A DNA stretch of 32,000 nucleotides, from positions 2,820,001 through 2,852,000 of the forward strand of contig NC_014833.1 in assembly GCF_000179635.2 (NCBI RefSeq). Direction: 5' to 3'. A program made the position numbers and the translations under genes. Shown piece by piece: positions 916 through 26,519 of this stretch. The stretch's first letter is position 1. Every line of letters begins with the position of its first letter. The notes beneath the pieces were generated by a model. That model searched no databases. It saw only the letters and a list, made by a program, of their open reading frames with translations, and had not been told where the DNA came from. The stretch is from Ruminococcus albus 7 = DSM 20455. Its GTDB lineage: Bacteria; Bacillota; Clostridia; Oscillospirales; Ruminococcaceae.

Positions 916-948
916 CCTCCCTGTTCGCGCAGGGAGGTTTTTATTTGC
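915..948 (+). terminator. Hairpin plus T-tract in plus orientation, immediately outside the int stop codon
   Basis: Stem acctccctg / cagggaggt (915-923 / 930-938), loop ttcgcg, then ttttatttg. It has intrinsic-terminator shape only on the plus strand, so it would block read-in antisense to int. Confidence 0.4.
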
Positions 949-950
949 CT

Positions 951-2135: not shown

Positions 2136-2196
2136 TGTAGCGCACTATTCTCTCTTTGTCAAGCGCTTTCGGAGATATGCCATAGCTTTTCGTCTT

Positions 2197-3393: not shown

Positions 3394-3536
3394 AAAAATG
3401 TCTCCTCTTTATATTTTTATTGAACCCTCTGACGAGGGAAAACAGGTACGCAAAAGGCTTGATGCCTTTGCTATACGAGCGCCCTTGATGGGCTTTGATT
3501 GGCTTGCAACGATACAGTGGTGATCGGCAAACCAAA

Positions 3537-3630
3537 CAGCGCGGAGCGCTGAGATTTACTTGCGGTGCGCCGCCAGTAACCCCAAATCACTTTTGACAGC
3601 CTATACAGTCCATCAAAAATGATATTGGGG
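3537..3630. promoter_or_regulatory. Candidate oriT / structured region upstream of mob
   Basis: Lies in the 369-bp non-coding gap between the CHC2 gene and mob. Contains the palindrome CAGCGC-GGA-GCGCTG (3537-3551) and an imperfect IR CCCCAAATCACTTTT (3580-3594) / AAAAATGATATTGGGG (3615-3630). Confidence 0.3.
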
Positions 3631-3762
3631 CTCTGCGAGGCTTTTATCGGCTGACGGAGCAGCCGAAATTGTGGGTACGGTTATTCAAAATCGCACCCAT
3701 GAGAGTTGCGAAAAAACGCATTACAATTTTGAAGAAATACCATATCGGAAACGATGTTTTTT

Positions 3763-4350
3763 TCAAAAATCAGCACTCATATTTTTCTGAAAATCTGCTA
3801 TCTGATTTACGATATTTTTCATGGAAAGCCGACCTGCTTTATTGAAGTTTATGAACTCCCAGCAGAGGTACTCCGCATAGTCCAAATGATGCAGGGAATA
3901 CACAAATCTTTCGTCAGGAATTTCATCGGGTGACGCAGGAGCAAATTCTCTCCATTCACGCATCAGCCACAGGTAATCGTTAAGTGTCCGCCAAGCGGAC
4001 TTTTCCCATTCTTCATAGGCTCGTTTTTCCTGAACACGCTTCTGATATTCGGACACTTCTTTCGCAGCCGGAGCTTTACCGATCTCGATATTCAGACCGA
4101 AGTCCTCATTCAGCTTTTTTACTGCATCAATGGGCTTATCGAGCCCGAACATTTTCTGTGTGAATCCGATAACATCAACGTGTGTTCCGCAGCCGAAGCA
4201 ATGCAGAGCATCGGGATAGATTTTTGCAGAGGGAGTACGCTCATTGTGAAAGGGACAAAGTGCCATACCGCCACGGGATATTTCAAGACCATATCCCTCC
4301 GCCACTGTTCTCATATCAATAGCAGATTTTACTTGCTCGAATACGGTCAC
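3763..4350 (-). CDS. CHC2 zinc-finger, DNA-primase-like protein
   Basis: CPFHNERTPSAKIYPDALHCFGCG is a CHC2 zinc finger. I chose the GTG start at 4350 (VTVFEQVKSAIDMRTV), which sits 2 nt after the stop of the upstream 72-aa ORF. The longer ORF-track start at 4428 overlaps that ORF. Confidence 0.75.
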   Translation of the reverse strand: MTVFEQVKSAIDMRTVAEGYGLEISRGGMALCPFHNERTPSAKIYPDALHCFGCGTHVDVIGFTQKMFGLDKPIDAVKKLNEDFGLNIEIGKAPAAKEVSEYQKRVQEKRAYEEWEKSAWRTLNDYLWLMREWREFAPASPDEIPDERFVYSLHHLDYAEYLCWEFINFNKAGRLSMKNIVNQIADFQKNMSADF

Positions 4351-4352
4351 GC

Positions 4353-4571
4353 TCAGAACGGGATAGAGTTGAAGAAGTCGAGAGCCGACTTGTAAATGTT
4401 CTGCTCCTGCTCGGTCAGGAAATGACACGGATCGCAGTCCTTGTTATCGGCAGCATAGAAGCCACGATAAAACAGAGTGTGGAGCATCTTGTAGTAAAGC
4501 TCCTCCTGCTCGGCATCATCGAAAGTATGGATACCATTGTTGCGGATATCGTTCTCGTTGTATTCGCACAT
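4353..4571 (-). CDS. Hypothetical 72-aa protein in the replication/mobilisation operon
   Basis: SD-like GAGGGGGGG precedes the ATG at 4571. It is tightly packed between the HTH gene and the CHC2 gene. No motif recognised. Confidence 0.5.
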   Translation of the reverse strand: MCEYNENDIRNNGIHTFDDAEQEELYYKMLHTLFYRGFYAADNKDCDPCHFLTEQEQNIYKSALDFFNSIPF

Positions 4572-4585
4572 ATTATCCCCCCCTC

Positions 4586-4876
4586 TCAGTTCTGAAAATA
4601 GTTCAGCAGGTCAGCCTTATTGACAAGAATCTTGCCACGGACACCCTCGCCTGTGCGGATATACTTGATCTTATTCTGAGCAACGAGCATACGCACGGTG
4701 TGTTCGGAAAGCCCCTCGATAAGCTCTGTACACTCCTTCACGGTGAGCATCTTCACCTTTTCAGTCTTTTTCTCGGTGGGCGCAGGAGCGTTCTCAACAG
4801 GTTCATCGTAGGCGATAGCAGTCATAAGCTCCAGTATCTGGTTCAGCATTGTCTCTTTCTGTTCTCTTGTAAGCAT
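4586..4876 (-). CDS. Excisionase-family helix-turn-helix DNA-binding protein (96 aa)
   Basis: Internal ATG at 4876 with a GAGG RBS. The C-terminal MLTVKECTELIEGLSEHTVRMLVAQNKIKYIRTGEGVRGKILVNK is the MerR/excisionase-type HTH. The long 185-aa ORF version overlaps the DUF3987 gene and was rejected. Confidence 0.8.
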   Translation of the reverse strand: MLTREQKETMLNQILELMTAIAYDEPVENAPAPTEKKTEKVKMLTVKECTELIEGLSEHTVRMLVAQNKIKYIRTGEGVRGKILVNKADLLNYFQN

Positions 4877-4976
4877 AATAAATACCTCATCTTTCTCTTT
4901 TCTCTGAGTTGTATTTTTGTGTACTATCAGCATTTTCAGCACGATCAAGTCCGAAAATGCTGATAATGTCGATCGT

Positions 4977-6611
4977 TCATATGTTGGGGTTGATAAAAAC
5001 CATGACCCCGCTTTTGTTGTTCCCATTCGCTCCCTGCACTTTCTCACGGCGGAGGTAGTTGTATTCCTCCAGCATATCCATTGTCTCAGCGAAGTCGGCT
5101 GCGTTCTTGAAAAGCGTACATCGGCAGAGCTTGTAAAGGTCATTCTGTCTGATGTTGGTTATGTGCTTGGAGCGTATCTTGTTGAGTACCCTCTCAGCTT
5201 TAATAGTGCCGAGATCAACGTCACCGAGACTGTAAGCGTAGATAGCCTGTTCACGGAAATACTCGCCTATCTCAACAGCGTTGCAGAACGTATCCAACGT
5301 AACACGGTTCTCTACGGGGTTTACGCCGTTCAATGCACACTTGATACAGTGAATGATACCGCATAGGCGGAGCAGTTCGCCGTGGTACTTACCGCCCCAG
5401 TCCTTGCAGAAAGCCATATCCGTGACAAGGTGCGGCTCGATAAAGTTGTTGTAATAGTCAACGAACTCTCCGTATGCCTTTGCATCGAAATGCAGATAAA
5501 GCTCTTTCTCGTCATGGTAGGTGAACTTAGCTCCGAGGAGCTTGTACACAAGGTTCTTGTAATTCTCAGCGACTTGCTCAGGCACAGCCTGCGTATCATA
5601 CTTTCGTGAACCGATGTTGCTGACAGGAAAACAATACATGAACCTTGCTATCAGACCGCTGCCACGAAACACAGGATTGTTTATCATACCGTCGAACACA
5701 TAAGGCTGACAGGCAAGGCAGATGCTCATGTAGGGCTTTTTCAGCACAATGCTCGCTCTGGTAGCTCGGTCGCTGATGTAGGTCTCGCCGTTCCATGATT
5801 TCAGCAGGAGATCAAGGTTAGGTACGTTGTTGCTGTAACGTCCGCTGAAATTACCGAGCATTCCGGCTTCGTCGGATATCATAAGCAGTGTGCCGTTCTC
5901 TTCGAGCAGGTTCACAAGGGATTCGGGTGTCACATCGTCCACCGCTATCCTGCGGAAGTTGCTCGCAGGGATATTGCTTATCTCCGTCTGGAGCTTGGCT
6001 ATCTCCTCAGCTGTCACATCTTTCTTCTTTTCAAGGGCTTCCAGCTTGCTCAACAGGAGCTTGCGTTCTGCCTGAGATTGAAAGATATCCTGCTTGTTGT
6101 TCTCATTCCAGTCGTGTGCAAACTGAATGTACGGACGCTTTATAAGCGACATTACAGGTGACTTCTTGAAGCTCGGCTCTGCTATGGTCAGCGTGTCAAG
6201 CACCAGAGGTTCGGTGTGGTCACGCTTGGCGGACATACGGTAAACTCCTGAAAAGCAGTAGCTCACCGCAGAGAGTATCGAAGTCCCTGCCATTGCAACG
6301 TCCGTTGATGTGGTAGTCGCTATTGCCTGCGCCATGTCTCCTATAATAGGTGGCAAAGCGTTCACAGGGAACGGCAGGAGGTTTGTCCCGTCGGGACGGA
6401 GTGGTGTGGGTTTTGCCCATTGTGTTACATTGTCCAATGAATTATCATCGTCCTTTCTGATATGATCTATAAAAGCACTTTTATGTGTATAGCGGTCAAC
6501 ATCGTCATGTTGTTCCGCTGTCAGATGTCTTTCGCATCTGACATGAACATTGTAACATTTCTTTCGGAGTGCTTGTGCGTGCATTGCGTATTTACGCAAA
6601 AGAATACGCAT
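4977..6611 (-). CDS. DUF3987 (YfjI-like) protein, replication/primase-associated protein of mobile elements
   Basis: 544 aa. The N-terminal LPFPVNALPPIIGDMAQAIATTTSTDVAMAGTSILSAVS matches the DUF3987 pattern as I remember it. The start codon is uncertain (ATG 6611 or 6584; neither has a clear SD). Confidence 0.7.
   Translation of the reverse strand: MRILLRKYAMHAQALRKKCYNVHVRCERHLTAEQHDDVDRYTHKSAFIDHIRKDDDNSLDNVTQWAKPTPLRPDGTNLLPFPVNALPPIIGDMAQAIATTTSTDVAMAGTSILSAVSYCFSGVYRMSAKRDHTEPLVLDTLTIAEPSFKKSPVMSLIKRPYIQFAHDWNENNKQDIFQSQAERKLLLSKLEALEKKKDVTAEEIAKLQTEISNIPASNFRRIAVDDVTPESLVNLLEENGTLLMISDEAGMLGNFSGRYSNNVPNLDLLLKSWNGETYISDRATRASIVLKKPYMSICLACQPYVFDGMINNPVFRGSGLIARFMYCFPVSNIGSRKYDTQAVPEQVAENYKNLVYKLLGAKFTYHDEKELYLHFDAKAYGEFVDYYNNFIEPHLVTDMAFCKDWGGKYHGELLRLCGIIHCIKCALNGVNPVENRVTLDTFCNAVEIGEYFREQAIYAYSLGDVDLGTIKAERVLNKIRSKHITNIRQNDLYKLCRCTLFKNAADFAETMDMLEEYNYLRREKVQGANGNNKSGVMVFINPNI
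6584..6599. promoter_or_regulatory. Palindromic operator-like site TTGCGTA-TT-TACGCAA (copy 2 of 3)
   Basis: Perfect 7-bp arms. It lies at the 5' end of the DUF3987 gene, in the divergent control region shared with gene 6717..7736. Confidence 0.4.
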
Positions 6612-6657
6612 AAAATTTTAGAATACGAATACAATCACGCTATAATACGCATTATAA

Positions 6658-6686
6658 TTGACAGTTTGCGTGTGATGTGCTATAAT
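6658..6686 (+). promoter_or_regulatory. Consensus sigma-A-type promoter for gene 6717..7736
   Basis: TTGACA (6658-6663), a 17-nt spacer ending in TGc, then TATAAT (6681-6686). RBS GAGGAG follows before the ATG at 6717. Confidence 0.6.
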
Positions 6687-6716
6687 GGAAGAAGATACTG
6701 AAAGCGAGGAGAGCGT

Positions 6717-7736
6717 ATGGGAACTACGACAATTTACCGTATAAACGAAACAGACCGCACGATAAATATCGCACAGTCTGTTAATGATACCGATGAAAGT
6801 GTTCATGGAGCTGTTCTGAATACAAGAACGTTCACCTTTGACGAGCTGATGAATCAGCATAAGGTTTTCTGCGAGCATACCGAGCCGTATGATGCGTTCA
6901 GGGACAGGCTCAACAGTGCCTTGCGTATTGACAGGAGCATTGATGTCAGCACCGATGATATGATTGCAAGGTTCATAGCCGAGTATGGGGAAAACATATT
7001 CTTCCGAGGATATGTGACCTCGGTCATTGAGTTTTATGATAAGGAACGGTATGTCCTGCTGAAACCGAATGACGTAGTTATCGCCAAGCTCAACAGAAGA
7101 AAGATACAGGATGAAGTTGCCCGAAAGCTCATGGACTACATGGATACGCATTTTACGCTTATGAGCAGTAATGCGTATTTCAACTGTAAGGCTAATATGG
7201 AGCATTTTATGATACAGCCTGGGCGGACGATTATTGCCGCCGACGAATACACTTATAATGTATTCCGTGAAAGCGATAACTGCCTGCTGACTATCCTTGC
7301 GGAGATCGGGCAGCTCGTTCATCATAATAAATGGACGGTCAGCGAGTGTGGCTTCTGTCACAAGCTGTTTCTCGGAACGGAAGGCGAGGTCTGCTGTCAC
7401 TCTGCTGAATGCATCGAAGCACAGAAACAGCAGAAAGAGGCTATTTACAAGGAGAATACCAAGGAATACTCTGCCGTCAAACGTGATTATGATGCCTTTG
7501 TTCGCAGATATAAGAAAACACTTGTAGAAGCAGGCATTCAAAAGTATCACCCTGCTGAGTTTGACGAGTTTATGCAGGCGAAGCAGGAGCGTATGGACGA
7601 TATGGACAAACTCAAAAAACGTCTGATACGGAACGGTCTGCCGACTAAGGAACTTATTGATCTTGGGGCAAAGTATAAGGCGGAGATAAAGGCGTTGGCT
7701 GATGAGTTAGTTGAAAGGTTTGGGAGTAAGGGGTGA
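6717..7736 (+). CDS. Hypothetical 339-aa mobile-element protein with a Cys cluster (CGFCHKLF...CCHSAEC) and a charged helical C-terminus
   Basis: Strong promoter and RBS, and a clean ORF. It resembles the conserved unknown protein usually found next to DUF3987 genes in Firmicute IMEs (possibly DUF6076), but I cannot verify that. Confidence 0.6.
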   Translation: MGTTTIYRINETDRTINIAQSVNDTDESVHGAVLNTRTFTFDELMNQHKVFCEHTEPYDAFRDRLNSALRIDRSIDVSTDDMIARFIAEYGENIFFRGYVTSVIEFYDKERYVLLKPNDVVIAKLNRRKIQDEVARKLMDYMDTHFTLMSSNAYFNCKANMEHFMIQPGRTIIAADEYTYNVFRESDNCLLTILAEIGQLVHHNKWTVSECGFCHKLFLGTEGEVCCHSAECIEAQKQQKEAIYKENTKEYSAVKRDYDAFVRRYKKTLVEAGIQKYHPAEFDEFMQAKQERMDDMDKLKKRLIRNGLPTKELIDLGAKYKAEIKALADELVERFGSKG

Positions 7737-7769
7737 ACTTTGAATTTGGTGGGGTCAGAGTTATACAAA

Positions 7770-7802
7770 AACAGGAACCGCCTTAATGAGACAGTTCCTG
7801 TT
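7770..7802. terminator. Bidirectional hairpin between convergent genes
   Basis: 9-bp stem aacaggaac / gttcctgtt with a 15-nt loop, A-rich before and T-rich after. It sits between the stop at 7736 (+) and the stop at 7811 (-). Confidence 0.5.
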
Positions 7803-7810
7803 ATTATGTA

Positions 7811-8515
7811 TCATTCTATAATTCCAGAATAATTTACAGCTTCGTCGATTTTATACATAAGCATACTTGCAAACATTAATCGGCGCATACATTCTTCCTT
7901 GGTTACTACAATAGTGTTTGTATGGGCTTTCGGATTTCTTAGAGCTGACATTGCTCCTGCCAGCATAAAGCGTGTTCCATTATGGATATTTTTGCCTGTT
8001 TCTGTGCTTCTATCACATATTTCTATGAGAGGATTATCAGAAAACACTTTGTTCATGGCGTCGTAGCCATCAGGAACATTTGAATCCCCAGGTTTAACGA
8101 TAGTATATAAATTCTTAACTCTATCATTTATCTCAATAAAAGCATCTTCAGCTGCATTTGCATAATGACCATCAAGATATAGCTGTTTGGACGATTTAAT
8201 AATACGACTATGTATCATACTCCAAATATCTTTTTTCTGGTTGTCAATATCATAATTCAAAGATTTTAATATAGCAATAATCTGTCCAAATACAGACGAA
8301 TTTAAACAACCATTATAAATAAACAGCATATCTTTCAACCGAAATAATTCGCTGCTGAAATGAGGATATTCTATTGCAATATCATATGATATTTTAGATA
8401 AATCATTCTTTATTGATGTTATTTGTCCAACAGGAATCGGTATCAAATTCCAATTGTTCTGTGATCCTATTCTCTTGAGCAGGGATAAGAGATTAGTTAT
8501 TCTTTGTGTATCCAT
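7811..8515 (-). CDS. TIGR02391 (Hypoth_Ymh)-type protein with a HEPN-like Rx4H motif
   Basis: 234 aa. The C-terminal half GHYANAAEDAFIEINDRVKNL...FMLAGAMSALRNPKAHTN fits the TIGR02391 pattern. RNPKAH is encoded at 7922-7939. The gene is AT-rich. AAGGA RBS. The start lies 14 nt after the TIR gene stop. Confidence 0.7.
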   Translation of the reverse strand: MDTQRITNLLSLLKRIGSQNNWNLIPIPVGQITSIKNDLSKISYDIAIEYPHFSSELFRLKDMLFIYNGCLNSSVFGQIIAILKSLNYDIDNQKKDIWSMIHSRIIKSSKQLYLDGHYANAAEDAFIEINDRVKNLYTIVKPGDSNVPDGYDAMNKVFSDNPLIEICDRSTETGKNIHNGTRFMLAGAMSALRNPKAHTNTIVVTKEECMRRLMFASMLMYKIDEAVNYSGIIE

Positions 8516-8529: not shown

Positions 8530-8859
8530 TTAAAACTTTATGTCATCGGCAATTGAAGCAACATTGGAGAAATGCTGATTTATTCGATTTTCTTCAAGTT
8601 CTCTTTTTCGTTTTTCTTCTAAAATAATTGCTTGCTCTTTTTTATTTGCAGTGTTTACACATAACACTAAAGTTTCTCTATGGTAATCCCTAACCTCTTC
8701 GATAGTTGTCCCGTCTAATATTATCTTATCACCATATACAGAAGCAATTCCTGGTCTGTGCATTGTTGTAAATCTTGGAGGACTATTCCAAGTTGAAATG
8801 AAGATATTTATCCATAAGCTACTTGGTCTTTTAGAAAGGCGAAATGGAATTTTATACAA
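8530..8859 (-). pseudogene. 3' fragment of the IS-disrupted TIR/SEFIR-like gene
   Basis: The frame ...LYKIPFRLSKRP... continues exactly from fragment 9883-10487 once the IS and one TSD copy are removed. The apparent ATG at 8860-8862 is supplied by the IS terminus. Confidence 0.7.
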
Positions 8860-9882
8860 CATGGTTATCCCTTTAACACACCACAGATAATTTACAATGC
8901 TGTCCAAATAAACAGACCTCAAAACTCAGAAAATATAGTATAATAGTGACAGAAACCGAAGGGAGCTGTCGCTATGTCAAAAAGATTTCCGAAACCTGAG
9001 ATCACACTTGATGGGATATACTCAAAGTTCGCAGATGAAAGCTTTTGCAAGGATTTTCTGCTTGATATCCGCTTTGAAAAGGGTTTTGCCTGCCCGTTTT
9101 GCGGTGGCTCTGAGTACCGCAGGATAAGGTCACGCCATCTGCTGCGATGCAAGTTCTGTAAAGCAGATATATCCGCCACAAACGGAACTTTTATGCACAG
9201 AACACATATTCCGCTCAGACTGTGGATAGTCACCGCATTCCTCATTATGAGCAACAAATGCAGCGTTTCTGCTGTTACGCTGATGAGGTCTTTGGGGGTG
9301 ACCTACAAGACTGCATGGTACATCCTTCATCGCATCAGAAAAGCTATGAAATGCCGTGAAGAACGCTATTTGCTTGACGGGATCGTTGAACTTGATGACA
9401 CGTATCTCGGTGCTCCGACTCACGGTAAAAAGCGTGGCAGAGGAACTGAAAAAGTCAAGATGATAGTAGCTTTGTCAAAGAACGCAGCAGGAAATCCCGA
9501 GTACGTTAAAATGAGCGATGTGCCGAATTTAAAGGGTATAACTGTTGGTAGATTTGCCAGGGATAATATCCGCGCAGGCTCGAAGATCGAGAGTGATAAT
9601 GCTCGAAGTTACAAGAAACCGTTGGCACAGAAATACTTCCATGTTTTTGAAACATATGATCCGACAAGCGGTCAGCTGAACTGGATGCATAAAGTTATAT
9701 CAAACTTCAAAGCAATGATCATGGGAACTTACCACGGAAACGAAAAGATCCACACAGCGTTATATGCTGCCGAATACTGCTACAAATTCAACCGTCGTAA
9801 GCTGGGAAACAGTGCGTATTTAAGGCTTTTGGCTGCTTTGGTGCAGTGATCTTACTTGTGGTGTGTTAAAGGGATAACCATA
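8860..9882 (+). mobile_element. IS1595-family insertion sequence, copy 1 (1023 bp)
   Basis: Perfect 24-bp terminal inverted repeats ATGGTTATCCCTTTAACACACCAC. 8-bp target duplication TTATACAA at 8852-8859 and 9883-9890. The sequence appears identical to copy 2. Confidence 0.9.
8974..9849 (+). CDS. IS1595-family transposase (zinc ribbon + DDE)
   Basis: 291 aa. CPFCGGSEYRRIRSRHLLRCKFC is the zinc ribbon and VELDDTYLG is the DDE region. Confidence 0.9.
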   Translation: MSKRFPKPEITLDGIYSKFADESFCKDFLLDIRFEKGFACPFCGGSEYRRIRSRHLLRCKFCKADISATNGTFMHRTHIPLRLWIVTAFLIMSNKCSVSAVTLMRSLGVTYKTAWYILHRIRKAMKCREERYLLDGIVELDDTYLGAPTHGKKRGRGTEKVKMIVALSKNAAGNPEYVKMSDVPNLKGITVGRFARDNIRAGSKIESDNARSYKKPLAQKYFHVFETYDPTSGQLNWMHKVISNFKAMIMGTYHGNEKIHTALYAAEYCYKFNRRKLGNSAYLRLLAALVQ

Positions 9883-10487
9883 TTATACAATGCACATCCA
9901 CGAGTACCATCCATTCGTGGCACGGTTACCTCATCGGTTATAATACCAAGAATATGAATCGGTTCATCTGGAGAAGAAGGACTAAGCTGTGGTGCAGCCT
10001 GGGCAACATAAGAAGGAACACGACCTATTTTAGGCTTCATTTTCACTCCATAAATGGTTGTGATCAAATCTTTGTAGTTATTCTCAAAATGAATAGAATC
10101 TGTCAAATCAATACCAAGCTTTCCAGCCAAAAACGTAGGCATAGCTGCATTAAATGATCCTTTACGCACCACAGGGATAAACTTACGTTCATTTCCTTTT
10201 GAGTATAGTTCCTCTGTTATAATATGACCTTCATATCCAACCCCACCTTTTCGATTATCGGCTTTTTCCTTATACAGTGGTGTACAGATAATGAGGACGT
10301 AATCGGCAGTTGTAATCGACTGTTCCATAAAATGTGGAAGTCTATCGCCTAAAGATGCGTCATACTGATCAACGGTTGCATCAATTCCATCGGCTAATAG
10401 TTTGTCAGCAAATTCTCGCACCCATTGTTGATGTGCATCTTCTTCCCATGAATATGATATAAATGCTTTAGGATGCTGTTTACTCAT
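9883..10487 (-). pseudogene. 5' fragment of the TIR/SEFIR-like gene, truncated by IS1595
   Basis: KAFISYSWEEDAHQQWVREFADKLLADGIDATVDQYD...YVLIICTPLYKEK...GGVGYEGHII is a TIR/SEFIR-type N-terminal domain. The ATG at 10487 overlaps the upstream stop as ATGA, with GGAGG 7 nt upstream. The present ORF reads into the IS and stops at 9852. Confidence 0.75.
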
Positions 10488-11308
10488 ATACAATCCTCCG
10501 CCTTAAAACCTTTATAGCTTCCAAATCCTAACATATAAACCGCCATAGCCACAGCAAGATTCTCATTGTTGAGATTCTGTTTCTTAGCAAGCTCCTTCAG
10601 CTCATCAATAACAGTATCGTGTGGAACGATAGAGCCTTCAAGCTCGTCCACAGCCTTCTGAATGATAGACGGCAGCACCATACACATCTGATAGAAAGCA
10701 TCTTCCTGTCCGGTTACAAGAGCATAGAACTGGTCGAGGCTCACACGGCGTATCAGCTTGTGACCGACCTTTTTCTTGTCAACGGTAGTCTCCCATTTTA
10801 TATTCTGCGATCTCTGAGCAATAGCTTCAACAAGAAAACAAGCACAATCATCATCGGTGAGAAGCTGGTTCTGCATCTTAATAAAAGTCTTACCTGCCGA
10901 TGCAGAATTCATGGTGTTGTGCTTGTTTTTCATCTCGACATACACAGTATGTACGCTGATTCCATCTGTAACAACAATGCCATCAGGATTTTCAAAGATA
11001 ACGTCCCAGCCGCCCTCTTTTCCGTTATCGGGAACACGACAGTTAGCAATGTACTGGAATATGCGCTGGTGGAAATAGCCTATATCGTTGTTATTGGACT
11101 TATCACGCTGACGGAAAATCTCGTTGCATACGATCTCCTCCCATGATGCCTGGTAGACAGTTTTATCAAAAATCAACTTGATAGGATCAATAATATTCTT
11201 GTTGAAACGCTTCAAATCGAAAGATTCAAGCTTTTCGCCATACTTCTCTATGGTTTTCTTAACGTGCTTTGTAAAGTCTTCTTCGCTGATGAAACTAAGT
11301 GTCCACAT
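10484..11308 (-). CDS. Type II restriction endonuclease, Eco47II-family-like
   Basis: 274 aa. FISEEDF...NIIDP...IGYFHQRIF...WDV...VEMKNKHNTMNSASAG...LDQFYALVTG matches my recollection of RE_Eco47II (GGNCC enzymes). It is coupled to the adjacent m5C methyltransferase. Confidence 0.6.
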   Translation of the reverse strand: MWTLSFISEEDFTKHVKKTIEKYGEKLESFDLKRFNKNIIDPIKLIFDKTVYQASWEEIVCNEIFRQRDKSNNNDIGYFHQRIFQYIANCRVPDNGKEGGWDVIFENPDGIVVTDGISVHTVYVEMKNKHNTMNSASAGKTFIKMQNQLLTDDDCACFLVEAIAQRSQNIKWETTVDKKKVGHKLIRRVSLDQFYALVTGQEDAFYQMCMVLPSIIQKAVDELEGSIVPHDTVIDELKELAKKQNLNNENLAVAMAVYMLGFGSYKGFKAEDCI

Positions 11309-12531
11309 TATGATAATCCCTCCAGTGCGATTCTTATCTGCTTTGCTATATCCATTGCAAGATTGACAGGAACGGCATTGCCGACCTGCTTATACTGAGA
11401 ACCTATACTTCCGCAGAACTGCCATTCATCAGGGAAACTCTGACAACGGGCATTTTCACGGATAGTAAACGGACGGGGTTCAAGCGGATGACAGCGATCT
11501 GTCTGCTTCTGGCTAGGTGAAGTCAAAACGGTAAGCGACGGTTCGTCAAGGCTGAGCCTGCGGAGAATGCCTGTCCTTCCGCCTTCCATGTACCAACAGC
11601 TTTTCATATACTCTTTCGCTATATCCTCGGGAATATCTCTCCAGTATCCACCCGGAGGAACAAGCTCAAATATCTTACGCTTGTATTCCGAATATGGTGT
11701 ACCCTCGCTTTTCGGACAGTCAAGCAGCACATCACGCAGAACTGGCTTGTACTCATGTGGTGTGGGGAAACTGAAACTGATCTTGTCAGTCAGATTGTTT
11801 CTGATGCCTATGGTTATCAGACGTTCACGCTTCTGAGCAACACCATAGTCCCAAGCATTCAGAACCTTCTTCTGAATGGTGTAGCCTGTACTTTCAAATA
11901 TATCAAGAATTGTTTTGTAAGTTCTTCCCTTATCATGAGTCAGCAGACCACGAACGTTCTCAAAAAGAAACATTTTAGGCTGGAGCTGTTCAAGGAACTT
12001 TGCGTAATGATAGAAAAGTGTTCCACGAGCATCTTCAAGACCGAGCCGTTTTCCTGCATAAGAGAAGCTCTGACAAGGTGCGCCACCCGAAAGCAGATCA
12101 AGCTCACCCTTCTTCAAACCGAAGTAATCTTGCAGGTCAAGACAAGAGATATTGGCAATATCATCATTGATAACTCTCCATTCAGGTCTGTTTCTGCGGA
12201 GTGTATCAGATGCGTCCTTGTCCACCTCTACAAGACCGAGCGTTATAAACCCAGCTTTCTCAACACCGAGAGCAAGCCCGCCTGCACCAGCGAATAATTC
12301 TATCGTAGAGAAGGTTCGCTGTTCTTTCTTAGTTGTAATATCCATAATATCACCGATATTGCAGTTCAGCACCATACATATCTTTTCAAGGCTTTCAAGG
12401 GAAACAGTTTCATTCTTTCCCATTCGAGCCATGACATTAAAGCTGACACCTGATGCTTCTTTCAGTTCGGTTTTATTCATGCCCTTATCAATCAGTAATT
12501 TCCATAGATTATTGTAGCTTACTGCCACCAT
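11308..12531 (-). CDS. DNA (cytosine-5) methyltransferase with an N-terminal XRE-type HTH domain
   Basis: 407 aa. The first ~65 aa (LWKLLIDKGMNKTELKEASGVSFNVMARM) are an HTH. m5C motifs then follow: FAGAGG (I), GGAPCQSFS (IV), ENV (VI), QKRER (VIII) and GNAVPV (X). The stop overlaps the REase start as TAATG. Confidence 0.9.
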   Translation of the reverse strand: MVAVSYNNLWKLLIDKGMNKTELKEASGVSFNVMARMGKNETVSLESLEKICMVLNCNIGDIMDITTKKEQRTFSTIELFAGAGGLALGVEKAGFITLGLVEVDKDASDTLRRNRPEWRVINDDIANISCLDLQDYFGLKKGELDLLSGGAPCQSFSYAGKRLGLEDARGTLFYHYAKFLEQLQPKMFLFENVRGLLTHDKGRTYKTILDIFESTGYTIQKKVLNAWDYGVAQKRERLITIGIRNNLTDKISFSFPTPHEYKPVLRDVLLDCPKSEGTPYSEYKRKIFELVPPGGYWRDIPEDIAKEYMKSCWYMEGGRTGILRRLSLDEPSLTVLTSPSQKQTDRCHPLEPRPFTIRENARCQSFPDEWQFCGSIGSQYKQVGNAVPVNLAMDIAKQIRIALEGLS

Positions 12532-17595: not shown

Positions 17596-18228
17596 ATGGC
17601 GGACAAGATCAATGTGAAGCTCATTCTTGAGCTTCGTCAGGCAAATATGTCGCAGAGGGCTATTGCAGCATCACGGCATATCTCAACCAAATCTGTAGCA
17701 GCAGTGTGGAAGAGGGCAGATGCTCTCGGTGTCAGCTATGCTGATGTCGCAGACAAGAGCGACGATGAGGTGTATCTGCTCTTCTTCCCGGACAAGTTCA
17801 GGAAGGAGACTATGTACGCACCTGTCAACTATGAGTATGTCCACGGTGAGCTGAAAAAGACCGGTGTTACACTTAAGCTGCTGTGGCACGAGTACAAAGA
17901 TAGTGCGAAGGACGGCGTTCCTGTCGGTTACACGAAATTCTGTGATGATTACGCCAAGTATGTTGAGCAGAACGATCTCACGAATCACATCACGCACAAG
18001 CCCGGAGTTGTATGCGAAGTGGACTGGAGCGGAAAAACGATGAAACTTAACGATCCAGATGATGGTAAGATGCATCACGTTTATCTTTTTGTAGCGACAC
18101 TTCCGTACAGTCAACTTGCTTATGTAGAACCTTGCCTGAACATGAACGAGCAGACCTGGATAGGTTGCAATATCCATATGTTCGAGTATTTCGGTGGTGT
18201 TACGCTCCGTATCGTCTGCGACAATCTC
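17596..18228 (+). pseudogene. istA: IS21 transposase IstA, N-terminal 211 codons
   Basis: RBS AAGGAGG precedes the ATG at 17596. HTH region ANMSQRAIAASRHIS. It ends at ...RIVCDNL, where the RIT-like element is inserted. Confidence 0.85.
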
Positions 18229-18379
18229 TAATGTGAAGCTTTACATTAGAGATTTAATGTAAAGAGGATGTTAATGTAAAGCTGAATAAAAATAGATCTA
18301 AAATCTAATGATTATAGGTATTCGACTTTACATTAATATGATATAATTGGATCAATCATAGAAAGGAGGAATTATCATC

Positions 18380-19611
18380 ATGATTGATTCCAGTTACTCA
18401 ATGACACTGTATGATGCAATCCAACTGTTTCAAAGACACATCATACAAAACTACGGATCTGAATCCAAAACAGCACAGGCTTACATTCGGATCTCTAATG
18501 ATTTACAGCGGTATGCTAAAGGAACGGATTTGGAGGTTTCTCCGGAAGATGTGATCCAAGAATACTATCGTATTATCGTCGGGGTCCCTGCATTTGAAGC
18601 TGTTCCGTCAAAATCAAAAGAACGTCGAGGAAGAGCTGTTCAGATGATTCTGGATATCCTTAATGGAAAAGAACCTAAGAGAAAGTATACCACCCATAAG
18701 CGTGATTGTCCCATTACGTACCTGAATGTCATCAGAAAATATGAAACTTTCATGAGAAATGACCAAAAGAGCGATGGCACAGTACGCACGAGATCCGGAC
18801 GAATCACTGTGTTTTTTTGCTTTTCTTGAGGAGTGTAAATGTACATCATTAGAGGGCATCACGCCGGAGCTGTTTGCAAGATTTGTATCGTCCCTCAATG
18901 ATAGGTATTCATCACAGGGAAAAGCGTCCATTTTGTATACGTTAAGGAATTTCTTTTCCTATGATGAGTTCTCAGGAGCGCTATCTTTCGATCCGATTCC
19001 CTTTTGACAGGGATTCATTCCGGAAAGCATGAAAGACTCCCATCCTTTTACACGGCAGAAGAAGTAAGGCGTATCCTGAATGCTGTCGACAGGAATACCC
19101 CATGGGGAAAAACAGTCTATCTTATGATGCTTTTGGCAAGTGTGTACGGTTTTCGCTCAAGCGATATCAAAGCAATGGTTCTTGACAATATAAACTGGAA
19201 AAATCGCACAATAAATATCACGCAGTACAAGACGCACAAAGAGATTTCCCTTCCCATGACAGATGAGATCCTTTTTGCACTCCTTGACTATATTAAGAAT
19301 GTGCGTCCTGAGTCAGACTGTTCGAATGTGTTCATCCGACTTAGAAAACCGTACATTGCATACTCAATGAATGATCACTTTGGCGACAAGATATTACCGT
19401 TTTTGAAATTGCCGGTGTTGATACAAAAGGTAAACATCATGGTCTGCATTCTTTAAGGCATAGTTTGGCAACAAACCTTTTGGTTTCAGGAACCCCGATA
19501 AATGAGATTGCTGTGATACTTGGACACACATCTGCGGCATCCACAAAAACTTATGTATGGTCAGATATAGAGCATCTCCGAGCAGCAGCATTGGAGGTGC
19601 CTAAAAAATGA
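18380..19611 (+). pseudogene. Tyrosine recombinase A of the trio, broken by three frameshifts
   Basis: The reading frame moves through ORFs 18380.., 18759.., 19004.. and a fourth frame ending at 19611 (GKHHGLHSLRHSLAT...LGHTSAASTKTYVW). The catalytic R/HxxR/H..Y residues are present across the pieces. The shifts lie near T-runs around 18812, 18995 and 19402. Confidence 0.75.
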
Positions 19612-20588
19612 TCAATGACAAGGAATTTCTTAAATTTGAAGAAGGTTTTTTCAAACCATATTTTGAAAAATTCATAGAGTTCAAGCGTGGAAAAGGTGAA
19701 AAAGTTGCTCATTCAACCATGGTTCGCTTAAGGAAACTGAACAATTCGCTTAATACTTACTATGAACACCATATATCTGACCAGATGGTGGAGGAGTTAC
19801 TGGCTCCTCGTGATGGATTAAGCGAATTAGAACGCCAATATCTTACAGCGAATCTCCGCCAGTTTTGTTCTTTCTTGGCGCTTCTCGGAATTGATGCGGT
19901 CATCGTCCCACGAAAATATATGCGAACGGTAAAGAGTGAATTTCGTCCGTACATTTTCAGCGACGATGAACTGCGCCGTCTGACTATTGCAGCCGACACG
20001 CTTCCTGCATCAAGAAAGTCGAGCTCGCATCAGCAGATATACCCAGTGCTCGTCAGATTACTTATAGGTACCGGAATGCGCATAGGCGAAGTCCTTGCAC
20101 TGAAGCGGGCGAATGTTGACACTTCAAACGGTGTGATCAATGTTATCAACGGTAAAAATGGCGTTTCAAGATTTATTCCTGTATCCGACAGCTTGAAAGA
20201 AGTCCTATTTGACTATGCCAAGACTATAGATATGTCTGATGAGAATAGACCGTTTTTCACTTCCTCCTACACCGGTGGTCATCTTACATATGATGCTATG
20301 AAATATATGTTTCCAAAGATGTTTAAGACGGCAGGCATACACAAGTCAGATGGTAAGACGCCAAATATCCATTCTATCCGGCATACATTCTGCACCAAAA
20401 GTCTGGAAAAAATGTTGGAAAACGGAATGAATGTCTATACTGCTATTCCAATACTGGCGGCATACGTCGGACATGTGAATTACATAGATACAGAAAAATA
20501 CATTCATTTCACAGAACAGGGACATACGGATTTCTTGCAGAAAGAATCATCCTTGGGGAGTCTATTCCCGGAGGTGGACAATGAGTGA
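19608..20588 (+). CDS. Tyrosine recombinase B of the trio
   Basis: 326 aa. GMRIGEVLAL, HSIRHTF and GHVNYIDTEKYIH. The ATG overlaps the recombinase A stop as ATGA. Confidence 0.85.
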   Translation: MINDKEFLKFEEGFFKPYFEKFIEFKRGKGEKVAHSTMVRLRKLNNSLNTYYEHHISDQMVEELLAPRDGLSELERQYLTANLRQFCSFLALLGIDAVIVPRKYMRTVKSEFRPYIFSDDELRRLTIAADTLPASRKSSSHQQIYPVLVRLLIGTGMRIGEVLALKRANVDTSNGVINVINGKNGVSRFIPVSDSLKEVLFDYAKTIDMSDENRPFFTSSYTGGHLTYDAMKYMFPKMFKTAGIHKSDGKTPNIHSIRHTFCTKSLEKMLENGMNVYTAIPILAAYVGHVNYIDTEKYIHFTEQGHTDFLQKESSLGSLFPEVDNE

Positions 20589-21585
20589 TAATTTATTCTT
20601 CTATATACAACGATATTTTATGTCTTACCTAATGAAACAGCATAATTACGGCCCTAATACTGTTTCATCATACCGAGACACCTTTAAGCTTTTGCTTAAA
20701 TTTATGTCAGAATCCGGTAAAAGCATATCAAAGAAAACTGTTGATGAGATTGACTGCGATGTAGTACTCAAGTTTCTCTCTTGGCTTTCGAATGTCAGGA
20801 AAAATGGGGTGCCTACCCAAAATGTAAGATTGGCACATATAAAATCATTTTTTCGATATGTAATGATGATCTCACCTGAATACTCCGGGCAATGCAGCGA
20901 AATACTCAGTATACCATTTGCAAAGGAAGATAAAAGGCTTCCTGATTGTATGTCTACGGATGCTATAAAGCAAATGCTTTCATCGATCGACTCATCATCT
21001 AACGAGGGACTAAGGCATTTGGCAATCTTATCCCTTATGTACGATTCAGCTTGTAGGGTTCAGGAAATCATTTCACTAGATGTCAAAGACTTTCAGCCGG
21101 GTCAATGCTGCAGGATATATGTGCATGGTAAGGGAAATAAATATCGCACCATTCCGTTACTGGGAAAAACAGAAAAAATCATCTCAAAATATATCAGGCA
21201 ATTCGGTCTTATGCAAGAGTCCCCAATGTTTTGCAACAGGAATGGTGACCGGCTAACAAGGCAAGGCATCCGCTACATAATAAGGAAATACTCTAAGTTG
21301 GCAAACGATACGGTTCCCGGTATTATAACCGGCTCTGTATACCCACATCGATTACGCCACAGTAAAGCCACACACCTTGTGGACAATGGCGTAAACATTT
21401 ATAATGTCAGGGATTTCTTGGGACATGAGTCTGTTGCAACAACTCAGATTTACCTGTCAACGAATCCGGAAGTTATCAGAAAGGCTATCGAGACAGTAGC
21501 TGAGAAAACAGTATCAGAAAGCCTTGATTTCTTTTCAGACAAAGAAAAGGACGATTTGATTTCCTTCTTGGATTCACTAGGATAA
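20581..21585 (+). CDS. Tyrosine recombinase C of the trio
   Basis: 334 aa. ACRVQEIISL, HRLRHSKATHL and LGHESVATTQIYLS. It overlaps recombinase B by 8 nt. Confidence 0.85.
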   Translation: MSDNLFFYIQRYFMSYLMKQHNYGPNTVSSYRDTFKLLLKFMSESGKSISKKTVDEIDCDVVLKFLSWLSNVRKNGVPTQNVRLAHIKSFFRYVMMISPEYSGQCSEILSIPFAKEDKRLPDCMSTDAIKQMLSSIDSSSNEGLRHLAILSLMYDSACRVQEIISLDVKDFQPGQCCRIYVHGKGNKYRTIPLLGKTEKIISKYIRQFGLMQESPMFCNRNGDRLTRQGIRYIIRKYSKLANDTVPGIITGSVYPHRLRHSKATHLVDNGVNIYNVRDFLGHESVATTQIYLSTNPEVIRKAIETVAEKTVSESLDFFSDKEKDDLISFLDSLG

Positions 21586-21684
21586 CACGCATTTGTTAAT
21601 GTAAAGTAGGTCATGATGGAATGCCGATCAGACTTTCATTGAAACGGCCGACTTTACATTAACATCCTCTTTACATTAAATCTC

Positions 21685-22611
21685 AAGACCGGCGTTGTGA
21701 CACATCCCCGTGAGGGTGACATCATTCTGAACCAGTGCTATGAAGATTTTTCAAATCACTACTGCACGGCGATCATGCCCGCCGGCGTGAAAAAGCCGAA
21801 GCAGAAAGCATCCGTTGAAGGCACTGTCGGGAAGATAGCTACTGCCATCATTGCCCGTCTGCGCAACAACGAATACACTACACTTCATGAGTTGAAAACA
21901 GATGTTGCAGCAGCACTGGAGGATTTCAACAACAGGCCATTCCAGAAACGTGAAGGCAGCCGCCGTGAGGTGTTTGAAGCAAATGAGCGATTCACACTGC
22001 GACCGTTGCCTGCATTTCCGTATGAGTATGCTGTGTGGGAATACGGGCGCGTGATCGGCTCGGATTTTCATGTGACCTACCGGACCTGCAAGTATTCAGT
22101 GCCATATCGTTTTGTTGGAAAGAAGGTCGACTTGAAGATCACAGACAGTTTGATCGAGGTCTATTGCGGTCATGAGCGTATCTCTTCCCACAAGCTTTTT
22201 CCAAGTTATGTCCGCAACAAGTATGACACATATCAGGAGGATATTCCCGAACGTTTTCAGAAAACGGAATGGAACGAGCATAATATCCGAGAATGGGCGG
22301 CATCTATCGGCAAGCAGACCTTAACTGTCATTGAACGAATTTTCAAGAGCTATCGCACTTCAGAACAGGGTATCAATCCCGCAATGTCAGTGTTGAAGCT
22401 GAGTAAGAAATACTCCTCCGAGCGTCTTGAAACAGCTTGTACGATGGCACTTGAACACGTCTGTGTACCTCGCTATTCGCATCTAAAAGCTATCCTTGCT
22501 TCCGGGCAGGATCTGGAATACAAAGAGAAAAAGAAGAATGAGAATGTATCATCACCCTCGGGATTTGTACGCGGTGCTGCATATTACGGAGGTGACGATC
22601 ATGCTGAGTGA
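21685..22611 (+). pseudogene. istA: IS21 transposase IstA, C-terminal 308 aa
   Basis: It begins KTGVVTHPREGD, which completes the conserved DNLKTGV motif in frame with 17596-18228 for a total of 519 aa. Confidence 0.85.
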
Positions 22612-23077
22612 GGAAACAAGACGCAAGCTGCGTGAGATGAACTTCGGCGAGCTGGTCGAAGCCATTGACCTTCAGGAGAAACAGCCGGAATATTTGGCAC
22701 TTACCTTTGATGAACGCATGAACCTTGCGGTAGATCAAGCCTATTCTGCAAAATACAATGCTAAGGTACATCGTCTTATCCATTCCGCTAAATTCCGTAT
22801 TGCCGATGCCACGCTTGTGAATGTATTTTATGAAAAACGCGGACTTGACAAAGAGATAATACTTTCACTGGGGACCTGTGGTTTCATCGAAAAGAACCAG
22901 CCGGTCGTGTTCAATGGATTCACCGGTTCCGGCAAGAGCTACCTTGCGTGTGCCATTGGAAGACAAGCTTGTATGCAGGGCTATCGCACAAGATATATCC
23001 GAGTTCCCGATCTTATGCAGCTTCTCGGTGAGGCATCACTTGACATACATGGCAGGGCTAAACTTCTTAAAAAGTTC
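22601..23077 (+). pseudogene. istB: IS21 helper ATPase IstB, N-terminal 159 codons
   Basis: RBS GGAGG precedes the ATG at 22601, which overlaps the istA stop. Walker A is GFTGSGKSYLA. It is interrupted after ...AKLLKKF. Confidence 0.85.
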
Positions 23078-23478
23078 GTAAGCGCCAACCAAACCCAGCC
23101 CCTAAAGAGAAAAGCCGAGGCTTCCAATGAAACCTCGGCTTTGATTATTAGAGCCATCTACTTGTACTTTACTACCGGTTACTATACTTCTCTACCAACG
23201 GCTGTAACTCTACTTTACAGCCAATTACTTTACCTCACTGTAAGTTTGCTTAGTAGGTACTGATATTGATGCCGTTCTCATTGCACCATTCTTCGACTTT
23301 CTTTCCGCTGCTCTGACATTCCTGTACCATTGCCGCCCATTCTTTGTGACGCACCTGCTTTTTTATCTCGCGTATTCTTCCCATGATATCTTACTCCTTT
23401 CAGGTTTCGATTTGCCCTCAGAGTAATTATATCATTCTTTGCTAACTTTGTCATTGGCTGGGGGTGGTTGGCGGTTAC
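23078..23478 (-). mobile_element. 401-bp IS66-family-derived MITE / deletion derivative
   Basis: Terminal IRs are GTAAGCGCCAACCAAACCCAG (left) and the reverse complement GTAACCGCCAACCACCCCCAG (right). 8-bp TSD AAAAGTTC at 23070-23077 and 23479-23486. It retains the 5' part of an IS66 tnpA-like ORF. Confidence 0.7.
23250..23384 (-). pseudogene. Truncated IS66 TnpA (orf1)-like HTH ORF, 44 aa
   Basis: RBS AAAGGAG precedes the ATG at 23384. MGRIREIKKQVRHKEWAAMVQECQSSGKKVEEWCNENGINISTY aligns with IKQEVRLQEWTAQIEAQQASGLTIREWCKEKGIKPNTYY of the tnpA gene at 24853-25173. Confidence 0.5.
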
Positions 23479-25173: not shown

Positions 25174-25382
25174 ATATTTCACCAACTCCTATCTGTCTAA
25201 TATACTCCAATTAACTCCATGGACCAATTTGGATTGTCCAATTTACTTCATGGTGTTCCTTGGAGTTTATTATACTTCATTAGACTTCGGTGGGGTAGGT
25301 GCGGAGGGTTATACGCTTACCCTCATAGGACTGTTTATAAGTCTTATGAGAGATTTTCTTATAAAACTGAACTATTCAATTA

Positions 25383-26405
25383 CATGGTTATCCCTTTAAC
25401 ACACCACAGATAATTTACAATGCTGTCCAAATAAACAGACCTCAAAACTCAGAAAATATAGTATAATAGTGACAGAAACCGAAGGGAGCTGTCGCTATGT
25501 CAAAAAGATTTCCGAAACCTGAGATCACACTTGATGGGATATACTCAAAGTTCGCAGATGAAAGCTTTTGCAAGGATTTTCTGCTTGATATCCGCTTTGA
25601 AAAGGGTTTTGCCTGCCCGTTTTGCGGTGGCTCTGAGTACCGCAGGATAAGGTCACGCCATCTGCTGCGATGCAAGTTCTGTAAAGCAGATATATCCGCC
25701 ACAAACGGAACTTTTATGCACAGAACACATATTCCGCTCAGACTGTGGATAGTCACCGCATTCCTCATTATGAGCAACAAATGCAGCGTTTCTGCTGTTA
25801 CGCTGATGAGGTCTTTGGGGGTGACCTACAAGACTGCATGGTACATCCTTCATCGCATCAGAAAAGCTATGAAATGCCGTGAAGAACGCTATTTGCTTGA
25901 CGGGATCGTTGAACTTGATGACACGTATCTCGGTGCTCCGACTCACGGTAAAAAGCGTGGCAGAGGAACTGAAAAAGTCAAGATGATAGTAGCTTTGTCA
26001 AAGAACGCAGCAGGAAATCCCGAGTACGTTAAAATGAGCGATGTGCCGAATTTAAAGGGTATAACTGTTGGTAGATTTGCCAGGGATAATATCCGCGCAG
26101 GCTCGAAGATCGAGAGTGATAATGCTCGAAGTTACAAGAAACCGTTGGCACAGAAATACTTCCATGTTTTTGAAACATATGATCCGACAAGCGGTCAGCT
26201 GAACTGGATGCATAAAGTTATATCAAACTTCAAAGCAATGATCATGGGAACTTACCACGGAAACGAAAAGATCCACACAGCGTTATATGCTGCCGAATAC
26301 TGCTACAAATTCAACCGTCGTAAGCTGGGAAACAGTGCGTATTTAAGGCTTTTGGCTGCTTTGGTGCAGTGATCTTACTTGTGGTGTGTTAAAGGGATAA
26401 CCATA
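25383..26405 (+). mobile_element. IS1595-family insertion sequence, copy 2 (1023 bp)
   Basis: Same 24-bp IRs as copy 1. It has its own 8-bp TSD TTCAATTA at 25375-25382 and 26406-26413. All ORF translations are identical to copy 1. Confidence 0.9.
25497..26372 (+). CDS. IS1595-family transposase
   Basis: The 291-aa translation is identical to that of 8974..9849. Confidence 0.9.
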   Translation: MSKRFPKPEITLDGIYSKFADESFCKDFLLDIRFEKGFACPFCGGSEYRRIRSRHLLRCKFCKADISATNGTFMHRTHIPLRLWIVTAFLIMSNKCSVSAVTLMRSLGVTYKTAWYILHRIRKAMKCREERYLLDGIVELDDTYLGAPTHGKKRGRGTEKVKMIVALSKNAAGNPEYVKMSDVPNLKGITVGRFARDNIRAGSKIESDNARSYKKPLAQKYFHVFETYDPTSGQLNWMHKVISNFKAMIMGTYHGNEKIHTALYAAEYCYKFNRRKLGNSAYLRLLAALVQ

Positions 26406-26519
26406 TTCAATTATGAAATCGGGCGATTTAAGCTTGCTGCAAGCAGAAGTTTTTTCTGGTACGCCTCGAAGTCGTTTAAGGTTTCCTTCAGGGTATCCGC
26501 TCTGCCGGAGGTAATGCAA

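Follow-up and report, generated by a model that had tools for sequence, protein, structure and literature searches.

A 32,000-nucleotide stretch of the Ruminococcus albus 7 = DSM 20455 genome (contig NC_014833.1, positions 2,820,001 to 2,852,000; hereafter the window, whose numbering is used throughout unless a locus is named) contains an IS21-family insertion sequence whose transposase gene, istA, is split by an element carrying three tandem tyrosine recombinase genes. An earlier note on this DNA had described the insertion as a recombinase-in-trio (RIT)-like element lying within conserved istA codons. RIT elements have been known since 2009 and are present in many phyla. The insertion, its relatives in other genomes and metagenomes, and their junctions with istA are described here, followed by a model for the movement of the element.

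The interrupted istA gene and its recombinase trio

The locus is arranged as follows, with T1 and T2 denoting the two parts of istA, P a short palindrome, E the constant body of the element, a, b and c three hexamers, and L1 to L3 and R1 to R3 the 10-mer sites near the left and right element ends.

17596-18222, plus strand: T1, 5' part of istA up to the Asp209 codon (from the reconstructed IstA; Pfam rve and Mu-transpos_C_2)
18223-18228, plus strand: hexamer a, AATCTC, istA codons Asn-Leu, T1-side target copy of the proposed 6-bp crossover region (single AATCTC in the empty sites L031-L034)
18229-18248, no strand: P, 20-bp palindrome TAATGTGAAG|CTTTACATTA, two 10-mer motifs head to head (inverted-repeat and motif scans)
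18249-18254, plus strand: hexamer b, GAGATT, reverse complement of AATCTC (from the sequence)
18255-21678, plus strand: E, constant RIT body, 3424 bp between 27-nt inverted repeats (size and identity across related loci)
18255-18281, plus strand: left-end sites L1 (18255-18264) and L2 (18272-18281), 10-mers in direct orientation with 7 nt of variable spacer between them (motif scan; 16 aligned ends)
18326-18335, minus strand: left-end site L3, inverted 10-mer, 54 nt interior to L2 (motif scan; invariant columns 72-81)
18380-19611, plus strand: ritA, with three 1-nt disruptions (three-frame translation)
19608-20588, plus strand: ritB, 326 amino acids, intact (Pfam PF00589; best matches at the B position)
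20581-21585, plus strand: ritC, 334 amino acids, intact, Xer-like (Pfam and NCBIfam; best matches at the C position)
21597-21606, plus strand: right-end site R3, mirror of L3 (motif scan; aligned ends)
21652-21678, minus strand: right-end sites R2 (21652-21661) and R1 (21669-21678) (inverted-repeat and motif scans; aligned ends)
21679-21684, plus strand: hexamer c, AATCTC, T2-side repeat of the target hexamer in direct orientation (sequence; empty-site alignment)
21685-22611, plus strand: T2, 3' part of istA from Lys-Thr-Gly-Val (reconstructed IstA; empty-site alignment)

Joining 17596-18228 to 21685-22611, that is, removing 18229-21684, restores an IstA of 519 amino acids which is colinear with intact IS21 transposases over 100% of its length at 90-91% identity. 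The insertion point falls within D-N-L|K-T-G-V. Intact relatives have AATCTC only once, in the context ...tgcGAC AATCTC aagaccgg...; in one of these empty sites (L031) positions 1095-1100 align to window 18223-18228 as well as to 21679-21684, the two AATCTC copies that flank the element. The reconstructed protein contains D143, D209 and E256 at a spacing of 66 and 47 residues, and these were matched to D124, D187 and E233, the catalytic triad of the solved IstA structure (PMC10122671). Asp209 is in all likelihood the second catalytic aspartate of the DDE triad, and the spacing of the triad places the element in the two codons following that residue. The precise insertion in the DNLKTGV codons that the earlier note had proposed is thus borne out by both the reconstructed protein and the empty sites.

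The 10-mer TAATGTRAAG occurs eight times in the window, at 18229+, 18239-, 18255+, 18272+, 18326-, 21597+, 21652- and 21669-, never farther than about 110 bp from an element end. By chance 0.11 copies would be expected, and none of 100 shuffled sequences reached eight; copies with two mismatches were no more frequent in the window than expected by chance. In an alignment of 16 ends from eight diverged elements the 10-mers are fixed in sequence and position (invariant columns 1-10, 18-27 and, inverted, 72-81), and the DNA between them varies. The at least seven motif copies noted before hence became eight, all at the element ends, and their conserved positions agree with the proposal that they form a candidate binding-site array. 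The inverted repeat required a correction. Its arms at 18249-18281 and 21652-21684 are 33 nt each and 100% complementary, as had been claimed; however, the outer 6 nt change with the insertion site among other copies, and therefore the repeat that is intrinsic to the element measures 27 nt. Judged from these copies, the outer 6 nt are a copy of the target hexamer and not element sequence. Hexamer b at the same time forms the spacer of a complete internal core, CTTTACATTA-GAGATT-TAATGTAAAG, and a-P-b together is a 32-nt palindrome with a predicted DNA hairpin of -8.8 kcal/mol (z -7).

In the left end (18326-18347) the inner site is followed directly by a conserved TATAAT/CATAAT box, a putative promoter element, and by the ritA ribosome-binding site. 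The box is present in all aligned left ends and in no right end; a consensus promoter and terminator scan gave the same counts as shuffled sequence and did not flag it. Binding at the inner left 10-mer, next to the box and the ribosome-binding site, could autoregulate ritABC.

The three recombinase genes are co-oriented and overlap by ATGA (ritA/ritB, 19608-19611) and by 8 nt (ritB/ritC, 20581-20588), and they are the only genes in E, which contains no fourth open reading frame. Each product matches Pfam Phage_integrase (PF00589). In an alignment of nine proteins from three trios, R259, K284, H357, R360, H383 and Y392 (RitA numbering) are invariant, the residues of the window RitA being read after correction of its three frameshifts. 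The B proteins have in common an insertion between HxxR and GH, and a C-terminal extension is common to RitC, y4rC and the Bacteroides C protein; the single-sequence model of RitC was of poor quality, with a predicted local distance difference test (pLDDT) score of 42. An AlphaFold2 model of intact RitA (pLDDT 81) displays two four-helix bundles (residues 10-94 and 112-191) followed by the catalytic domain (226-404); it is structurally close to Xer-type recombinases and the λ and Tn1549 integrases. RitC matched XerD (1a0p) at 9e-21.

The ritA breaks are changes of ±1 nt in the T-runs T7 (18812-18818), T4 (19002-19005) and T5 (19400-19404), each of which was defined with Logan contigs encoding an identical RitC. 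An intact allele for a 410-amino-acid RitA occurs in L002 and L004, from which the window copy differs by these indels alone. Within the Logan contigs L002-L006 the indels are combined differently by run (none, one or two of the three) in otherwise identical DNA. They could reflect homopolymer sequencing error, recombination among copies, slippage-prone tracts or real decay; the window copy with its frameshifted ritA is probably non-autonomous unless the frameshifts are sequencing errors. A further derivative (L001, 201-587, and L010, 1-135) has lost 615 bp corresponding to window 19181-19795, which creates a ritA-ritB fusion. It is present in two independent metagenome assemblies, and in L001 its right end joins a different IS21 copy at AATCTC.

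With respect to family membership, the window proteins were compared with a y4rB/y4rC-annotated alphaproteobacterial plasmid trio and a Bacteroides finegoldii plasmid trio, which stood in for the CH34 archetype as the family reference. Positional matches reached 1e-16 (A), 8e-20 (B) and 2e-54 (C) for the former and 1e-38, 5e-42 and 3e-63 for the latter. Matches across positions were always weaker, with a narrow difference only for RitA against the alphaproteobacterial trio (1e-16 versus 1e-13 to y4rC). Two sequential N-terminal core-binding domains are a hallmark of RitA, and RitC is marked by an extra conserved C-terminal helix (Smyshlyaev 2021, PMC8138268). Because of the A-B-C gene order, the overlaps, the positional matches and the double N-terminal domain of RitA, the window element is classified with high confidence as a RIT element. 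Chromosomal XerC/XerD could be dismissed, as the best NCBIfam score was 187.6 against an XerC cut-off of 335 and the genes lie inside a mobile unit. Likewise, three recombinases of 410, 326 and 334 amino acids without a fourth open reading frame do not fit the Tn554 family, and the presence of the three recombinase genes only rules out an SE/GInt element.

The element resembles ritABC of Cupriavidus metallidurans CH34 and the y4rABC-type trios of rhizobial plasmids (Van Houdt 2009/2012) in its overlapping genes ordered A-B-C. It also agrees with the archetypes in protein size (410/326/334 versus 315-410 amino acids), in a unit of about 3.4-3.5 kb (here 3424 bp) with terminal inverted repeats of about 28-34 bp (here 27 nt, or 33 with the hexamers), in the two N-terminal helical domains of RitA (PMC8138268), and in a palindrome beside one end along with 'sequence variation at the ends' (PMC3414803). 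Unlike these archetypes, it belongs to a host clade of rumen and gut Clostridia, has a defined array of 10-mers (three per end and two in P) and resolved 6-bp spacers, and has one istA codon position of IS21 as a demonstrable target.

Junctions of related copies

About 40 related loci (individually designated L) were retrieved by similarity to RitC or RitA, or by the repeat itself. Every E-end junction was classified automatically by blastx against 240 IstA proteins, and all counts are non-redundant. Of about 41 E-end junctions obtained through the RitC/RitA similarity retrieval, which was unbiased, 33 lay at the same istA codons. They stem from Ruminococcus, Butyrivibrio, Mediterraneibacter, Hespellia, Blautia and metagenomes and include elements with RitA identities down to 47-49% (L038, and L036 at its T2 junction). 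Among 12 related loci E measures 3422-3425 bp. Read in the istA sense, the layout across loci is T1-[a]-P-[b]-E-[c]-T2, in which a, b and c are AAYNNN hexamers (b as reverse complement): an AAYNNN hexamer adjoins every E end, with T2 or a P half beyond it, and every T1 continues into AAYNNN and half of P. Relative to istA, both orientations of E occur. The distribution of P was as follows.

T1 (upstream istA) junctions with P: 19, plus L013 (flank too short for blastx, T1 recognised by eye)
T1 junctions without P: 1 (L035)
T2 (downstream istA) junctions with P: 0
T2 junctions without P: 14, plus L023 and L056 (diverged T2, recognised by eye)
Other junctions: 0 with P, 4 without P (L036 left flank, a KAP-NTPase gene, two artefacts)

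On the upstream-istA side P hence accompanies 19-20 of 21 distinct T1 junctions, and on the downstream side 0 of 14-16 T2 junctions. It was never seen without E in the related loci, and empty sites lack it, which rules out that P is part of the IS21 target. In several loci the two P halves differ at position 7. Taken over all junctions, the target site is very probably GAY|AAYNNN|AAR-ACN in IS21-family istA.

E is 99% identical to the window in L013 and L027 and 100% identical in L001, and their flanks are not alignable as DNA. R. flavefaciens UBA2946 and two metagenomes have a 99%-identical element in another IS21 copy, with AAGGTT/AACCTT taking the place of GAGATT/AATCTC as hexamers and with the 20-bp piece TAATGTGAAGCTTTACATTA found on the opposite side of the element compared with the window. 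More than 20 distinct IstA lineages carry E, with blastx identities of 32-96% to different IstA references. Because near-identical E (99-100%) resides in such diverse, unalignable IS21 hosts, the element evidently moves on its own and chooses the istA site, and IS21 is, judged from these junctions, a regular target of these RITs and not a lucky catch. On the points raised by the earlier note, the proteins side with RitA, RitB and RitC by position, the further copies yielded more insertion sites with the same type of inverted-repeat boundary, and the mobility it deduced from one insertion now draws on many IS21 hosts.

The hexamers followed several patterns. In the window and in L013/27/28, L014/15, L038, L052 and L053, a equals c and b is its reverse complement; L057 agrees in a and b, its contig stopping before c. 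L018 and L019 have a identical to c and a different AAYNNN hexamer as b. In L051/55/59 b also differs, and c is cut at the contig end or one base off a. A hexamer a that differs from c was found in L023 and L041, and b of L023 also departs from the reverse complement of a. L012 carries AACATG on the T1 side, while an intact IstA relative (96% identity, both halves) reads DNC, that is, AACTGC. Finally, T1-P-E-P-T1' structures occurred in L021 and L047 and T2'-E-T2 structures in L020 and L060, with L060 having the same T2 on both sides of E.

Some loci were set apart. In L042-L045 (L042 at 7800) an E end is joined via AAAATA to AAAAGGGTTGTCGTATTAATTGATGATTTGGAT in a KAP-NTPase (QatA-like) gene with QatB next to it, and the opposite E end has an IS21 T2 flank. 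The join reads AAAATA-AAAAGGGTTGT, a secondary site that resembles the T2 consensus, and the structure looks like a secondary-site rearrangement disrupting a Qat-type defence gene. Logan contigs of 3430-3431 nt were rejected as free or multicopy elements, as they end 30 nt inside the inverted repeat, an assembly effect of k = 31, and carry no flank information. L058 has as its left end a perfect fold-back, odd-centred, of the left end of the element itself; this was set aside as an assembly artefact. No match was obtained by megablast of the element against plasmids or with the P-b-E pattern in viral contigs. An alphaproteobacterial RIT on a Beijerinckiaceae plasmid (L029, LR699074; 1846-5247) has an inverted repeat of 55 nt that is perfect. 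An intact IS21-like transposase/ATPase pair lies upstream at a distance of about 150 bp, and the RIT so adjoins an IS21-type element without lying inside the transposase gene; inspection by eye revealed no obvious P-like module.

A model for excision and integration

These arrangements can be accounted for, on balance probably, by a circular form with a palindromic double core whose crossover takes place in a 6-bp overlap common to element and target. With X as the 6-bp target hexamer, the integrated form would be T1-[X]-P-[X']-E-[X]-T2. The two direct X copies would recombine to excise a circle, with precise restoration of istA. In the circle the right end, X, P, X' and the left end would form an 86-bp palindrome (predicted DNA hairpin of the 86-nt junction, -38.9 kcal/mol) with two adjacent cores, one consisting of the 10-mer of an E end, X and a P half, and the other its mirror image with X'. 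Integration would occur by canonical tyrosine-recombinase strand exchange in the 6-bp overlap of the core that matches the target hexamer. As the cores are mirror images, P would always come to lie beside T1, and the core used would set the orientation of E. The unused core would keep its spacer, and hexamer b would record an earlier target. Occasional exchange across non-identical overlaps would bring in a foreign hexamer, as in Tn916 and Tn554.

An AAYNNN hexamer at every E end and at T1 is what strand exchange in a 6-bp overlap leads one to expect. The model accommodates the common pattern in which a equals c and b is their reverse complement. The AACATG of L012 would represent a hexamer imported across a non-identical overlap, and b in L018, L019 and L051/55/59 would be another plausible target hexamer, which fits the model. 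The secondary site of L042-L045 also agrees with it. The structures of L021/L047 and L020/L060 are presumably the expected reciprocal products of recombination between copies.

Several observations weigh against the double-core circle. The predicted circle junction was not found in 60 loci or viral contigs; assemblers based on k-mers break at the palindrome of the element. The arms of the target (..CCGGAY / AARACNGG) are unlike the 10-mer, and the sequences suggest that different Rit proteins may bind the element arms and the target arms. The need for three separate recombinases is left unexplained by the data. L035 has a T1 junction without P, which looks like a T1-P-E-P-T1'-like structure after a 26-bp slippage deletion. 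L013 and L027/28 have the same site and the same E orientation with P flipped, for which the model needs extra steps. In addition, RIT transposition has never been reproduced (PMC10214605).

Part of this evidence has been considered in favour of other routes. A P-b-E unit might use a single core for integration and always place P beside T1. Site-specific inversion would later produce the two orientations of E, its two sites being the internal core (10-mer-b-10-mer) and the E-end/T2 junction, which are inverted repeats whenever c is the reverse complement of b. Perfect inverted repeats, hexamers included, do flank E (33 nt in the window), L060 looks as if both orientations coexist in one sample, and the flip of P between L013 and L027/28 demonstrates that local rearrangement happens at one site. 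The inversion would use the same sites and chemistry as the double core and does not exclude it; however, taken alone it gives no reason for the frequent match of b with the reverse complement of a, and among the loci no pair with identical flanks and opposite E orientation was present. We regard this route as unlikely. Less likely still is that the a-P-b palindrome is not carried but made anew at each insertion, either through a fold-back or hairpin intermediate or by a cruciform resolution as carried out by telomere resolvases. The 32-nt hairpin would suit such a process, three hexamer copies with one inverted are odd for simple integration, and hairpin intermediates have been put forward for RITs by Nielsen et al. 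(2017), who found circles undetected and DNA protected from exonuclease (PMC5737581). De novo copying, though, forbids a b that is not the reverse complement of a, as observed in L018, L019, L051/55/59, L012 and L023, and P halves that differ at position 7 indicate that P is not a replicated perfect fold-back.

Two further explanations were considered. The 6-bp direct repeat would be an ordinary target-site duplication from a staggered cut in the manner of DDE transposases if only the equality of a and c in most copies and the single copy in the empty site were considered. Yet the element encodes no DDE enzyme, a third, inverted hexamer copy exists, the T1-side hexamer of L012 is foreign to its target, and a differs from c in L023 and L041, which makes a duplication very improbable. 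An ancestral IS21::RIT composite that spread as IS21 in trans, the position of the RIT being a matter of descent, would dispense with independent mobility; the ends of IS21 are intact, and mobilisation of a disrupted copy in trans is possible in principle. Against the 99-100% identity of E where the IS21 flanks cannot be aligned as DNA, the more than 20 distinct IstA lineages and the two orientations of E, this composite can hardly be upheld and is the least probable of the alternatives.

Extending the double-core model, we tentatively propose, with somewhat less than even confidence, that the RITs of this clade are dedicated parasites of IS21 with a palindromic double attP (element attachment site) core. 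The two 6-bp overlaps would be rewritten by successive targets and record the last two insertion sites, the three recombinases would divide between them the symmetric 10-mer arms and the two different istA arms, and precise excision would reversibly re-enable the IS21 transposase.

Comparison with other systems and genomic surroundings

Beyond RITs, the closest parallels are found among elements that depend on tyrosine recombinases. Tn554 of staphylococci (TnpA, TnpB, TnpC) is likewise a site-specific transposon run by several tyrosine recombinases. Conventional duplication is absent, and a 6-bp core moves along from the donor to the new site (PMC10214605), which resembles the foreign hexamer in L012. 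In contrast to the RIT described here, Tn554 has two recombinases (TnpA of about 360 and TnpB of about 630 amino acids, the latter about twice as long) and a small non-recombinase TnpC, asymmetric ends without long inverted repeats, no palindromic P module and another target. Tn916/Tn1549 and CTnDOT excise as a circle and integrate by a tyrosine recombinase, as proposed here; exchange occurs across a 6-7-bp overlap in which identity is not needed, and flanking hexamers travel along. They differ in having a single integrase with Xis, arm-type sites, a relaxed target choice, large cargo with conjugation genes, and one core instead of two mirror-image cores. The SE/GInt multi-integrase islands of Gammaproteobacteria also need several tyrosine recombinases together, are target-specific and leave a 6-bp footprint (PMC10214605), but possess four conserved genes including Tfp/GinC and Srap/GinD, large cargo, no inverted-repeat ends and other hosts.

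As recently as 2023 the target specificity of RITs and their mode of movement were listed as 'not tested' (PMC10214605), and a RIT has been found inside a Tn6049-type transposase gene (PMC3414803). The literature searched contained no paper on both RITs and IS21 or istA, although an earlier description of IS21 targeting is not fully excludable. The kind of element is known; three features of it appear to be new, namely that IS21 is a fixed target, that there is a P module with a set polarity, and that the 6-bp spacers are resolved. Together they would provide a first concrete picture of where RIT elements cut and join DNA. The clade offers a complete, testable parts list: the target measures about 30 bp and the crossover region 6 bp, eight candidate 10-mer binding sites hold fixed positions, a circle junction is predicted, and natural intact alleles occur in the cultivable R. 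albus AR67, B. hungatei NK4A153, H. stercorisuis DSM 15480 and M. glycyrrhizinilyticus An427. One mobile element is here clearly specialised on the catalytic-core codons of another, which bears on the control of IS21 in gut and rumen genomes; if the proposed parasitism holds, precise excision would switch the IS21 transposase back on reversibly. The findings also bear on rearrangements caused by these recombinases, one related copy being joined to the disrupted Qat defence gene. Should the proposed architecture be shared by proteobacterial RITs, for which 'variable ends' and an 'overlapping palindrome' were described in 2012, it would solve the movement of RIT elements.

The IS21 copy of the window, set in a segment rich in mobile elements, carries a second insertion. 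A miniature inverted-repeat transposable element (MITE)-like sequence of about 394-402 bp lies in istB (23077-23478); its terminal inverted repeats, about 23 nt long (GTAAGCGCCAACCAAACCCAGCC ... GGCTGGGGGTGGTTGGCGGTTAC), are imperfect, and an 8-bp direct repeat (AAAAGTTC) flanks it. The intact relative L031 encodes an uninterrupted IstB of 248 amino acids. Two IS1595-family copies at 8852-9890 and 25375-26407 are direct, 97% identical, about 1.04 kb long and bounded by inverted repeats of about 30-40 nt. They enclose 15.5 kb with a C5 methylase gene, an IS66 and the IS21::RIT, and panB begins just outside at 26803; the bracketed segment resembles a composite transposon. At 1-8500 and 11308-12531 are genes that encode a Mob_Pre relaxase, a DUF3987 protein and a helix-turn-helix-fused C5 cytosine methylase, suggesting that the whole left part of the window may be an integrated mobilisable element.

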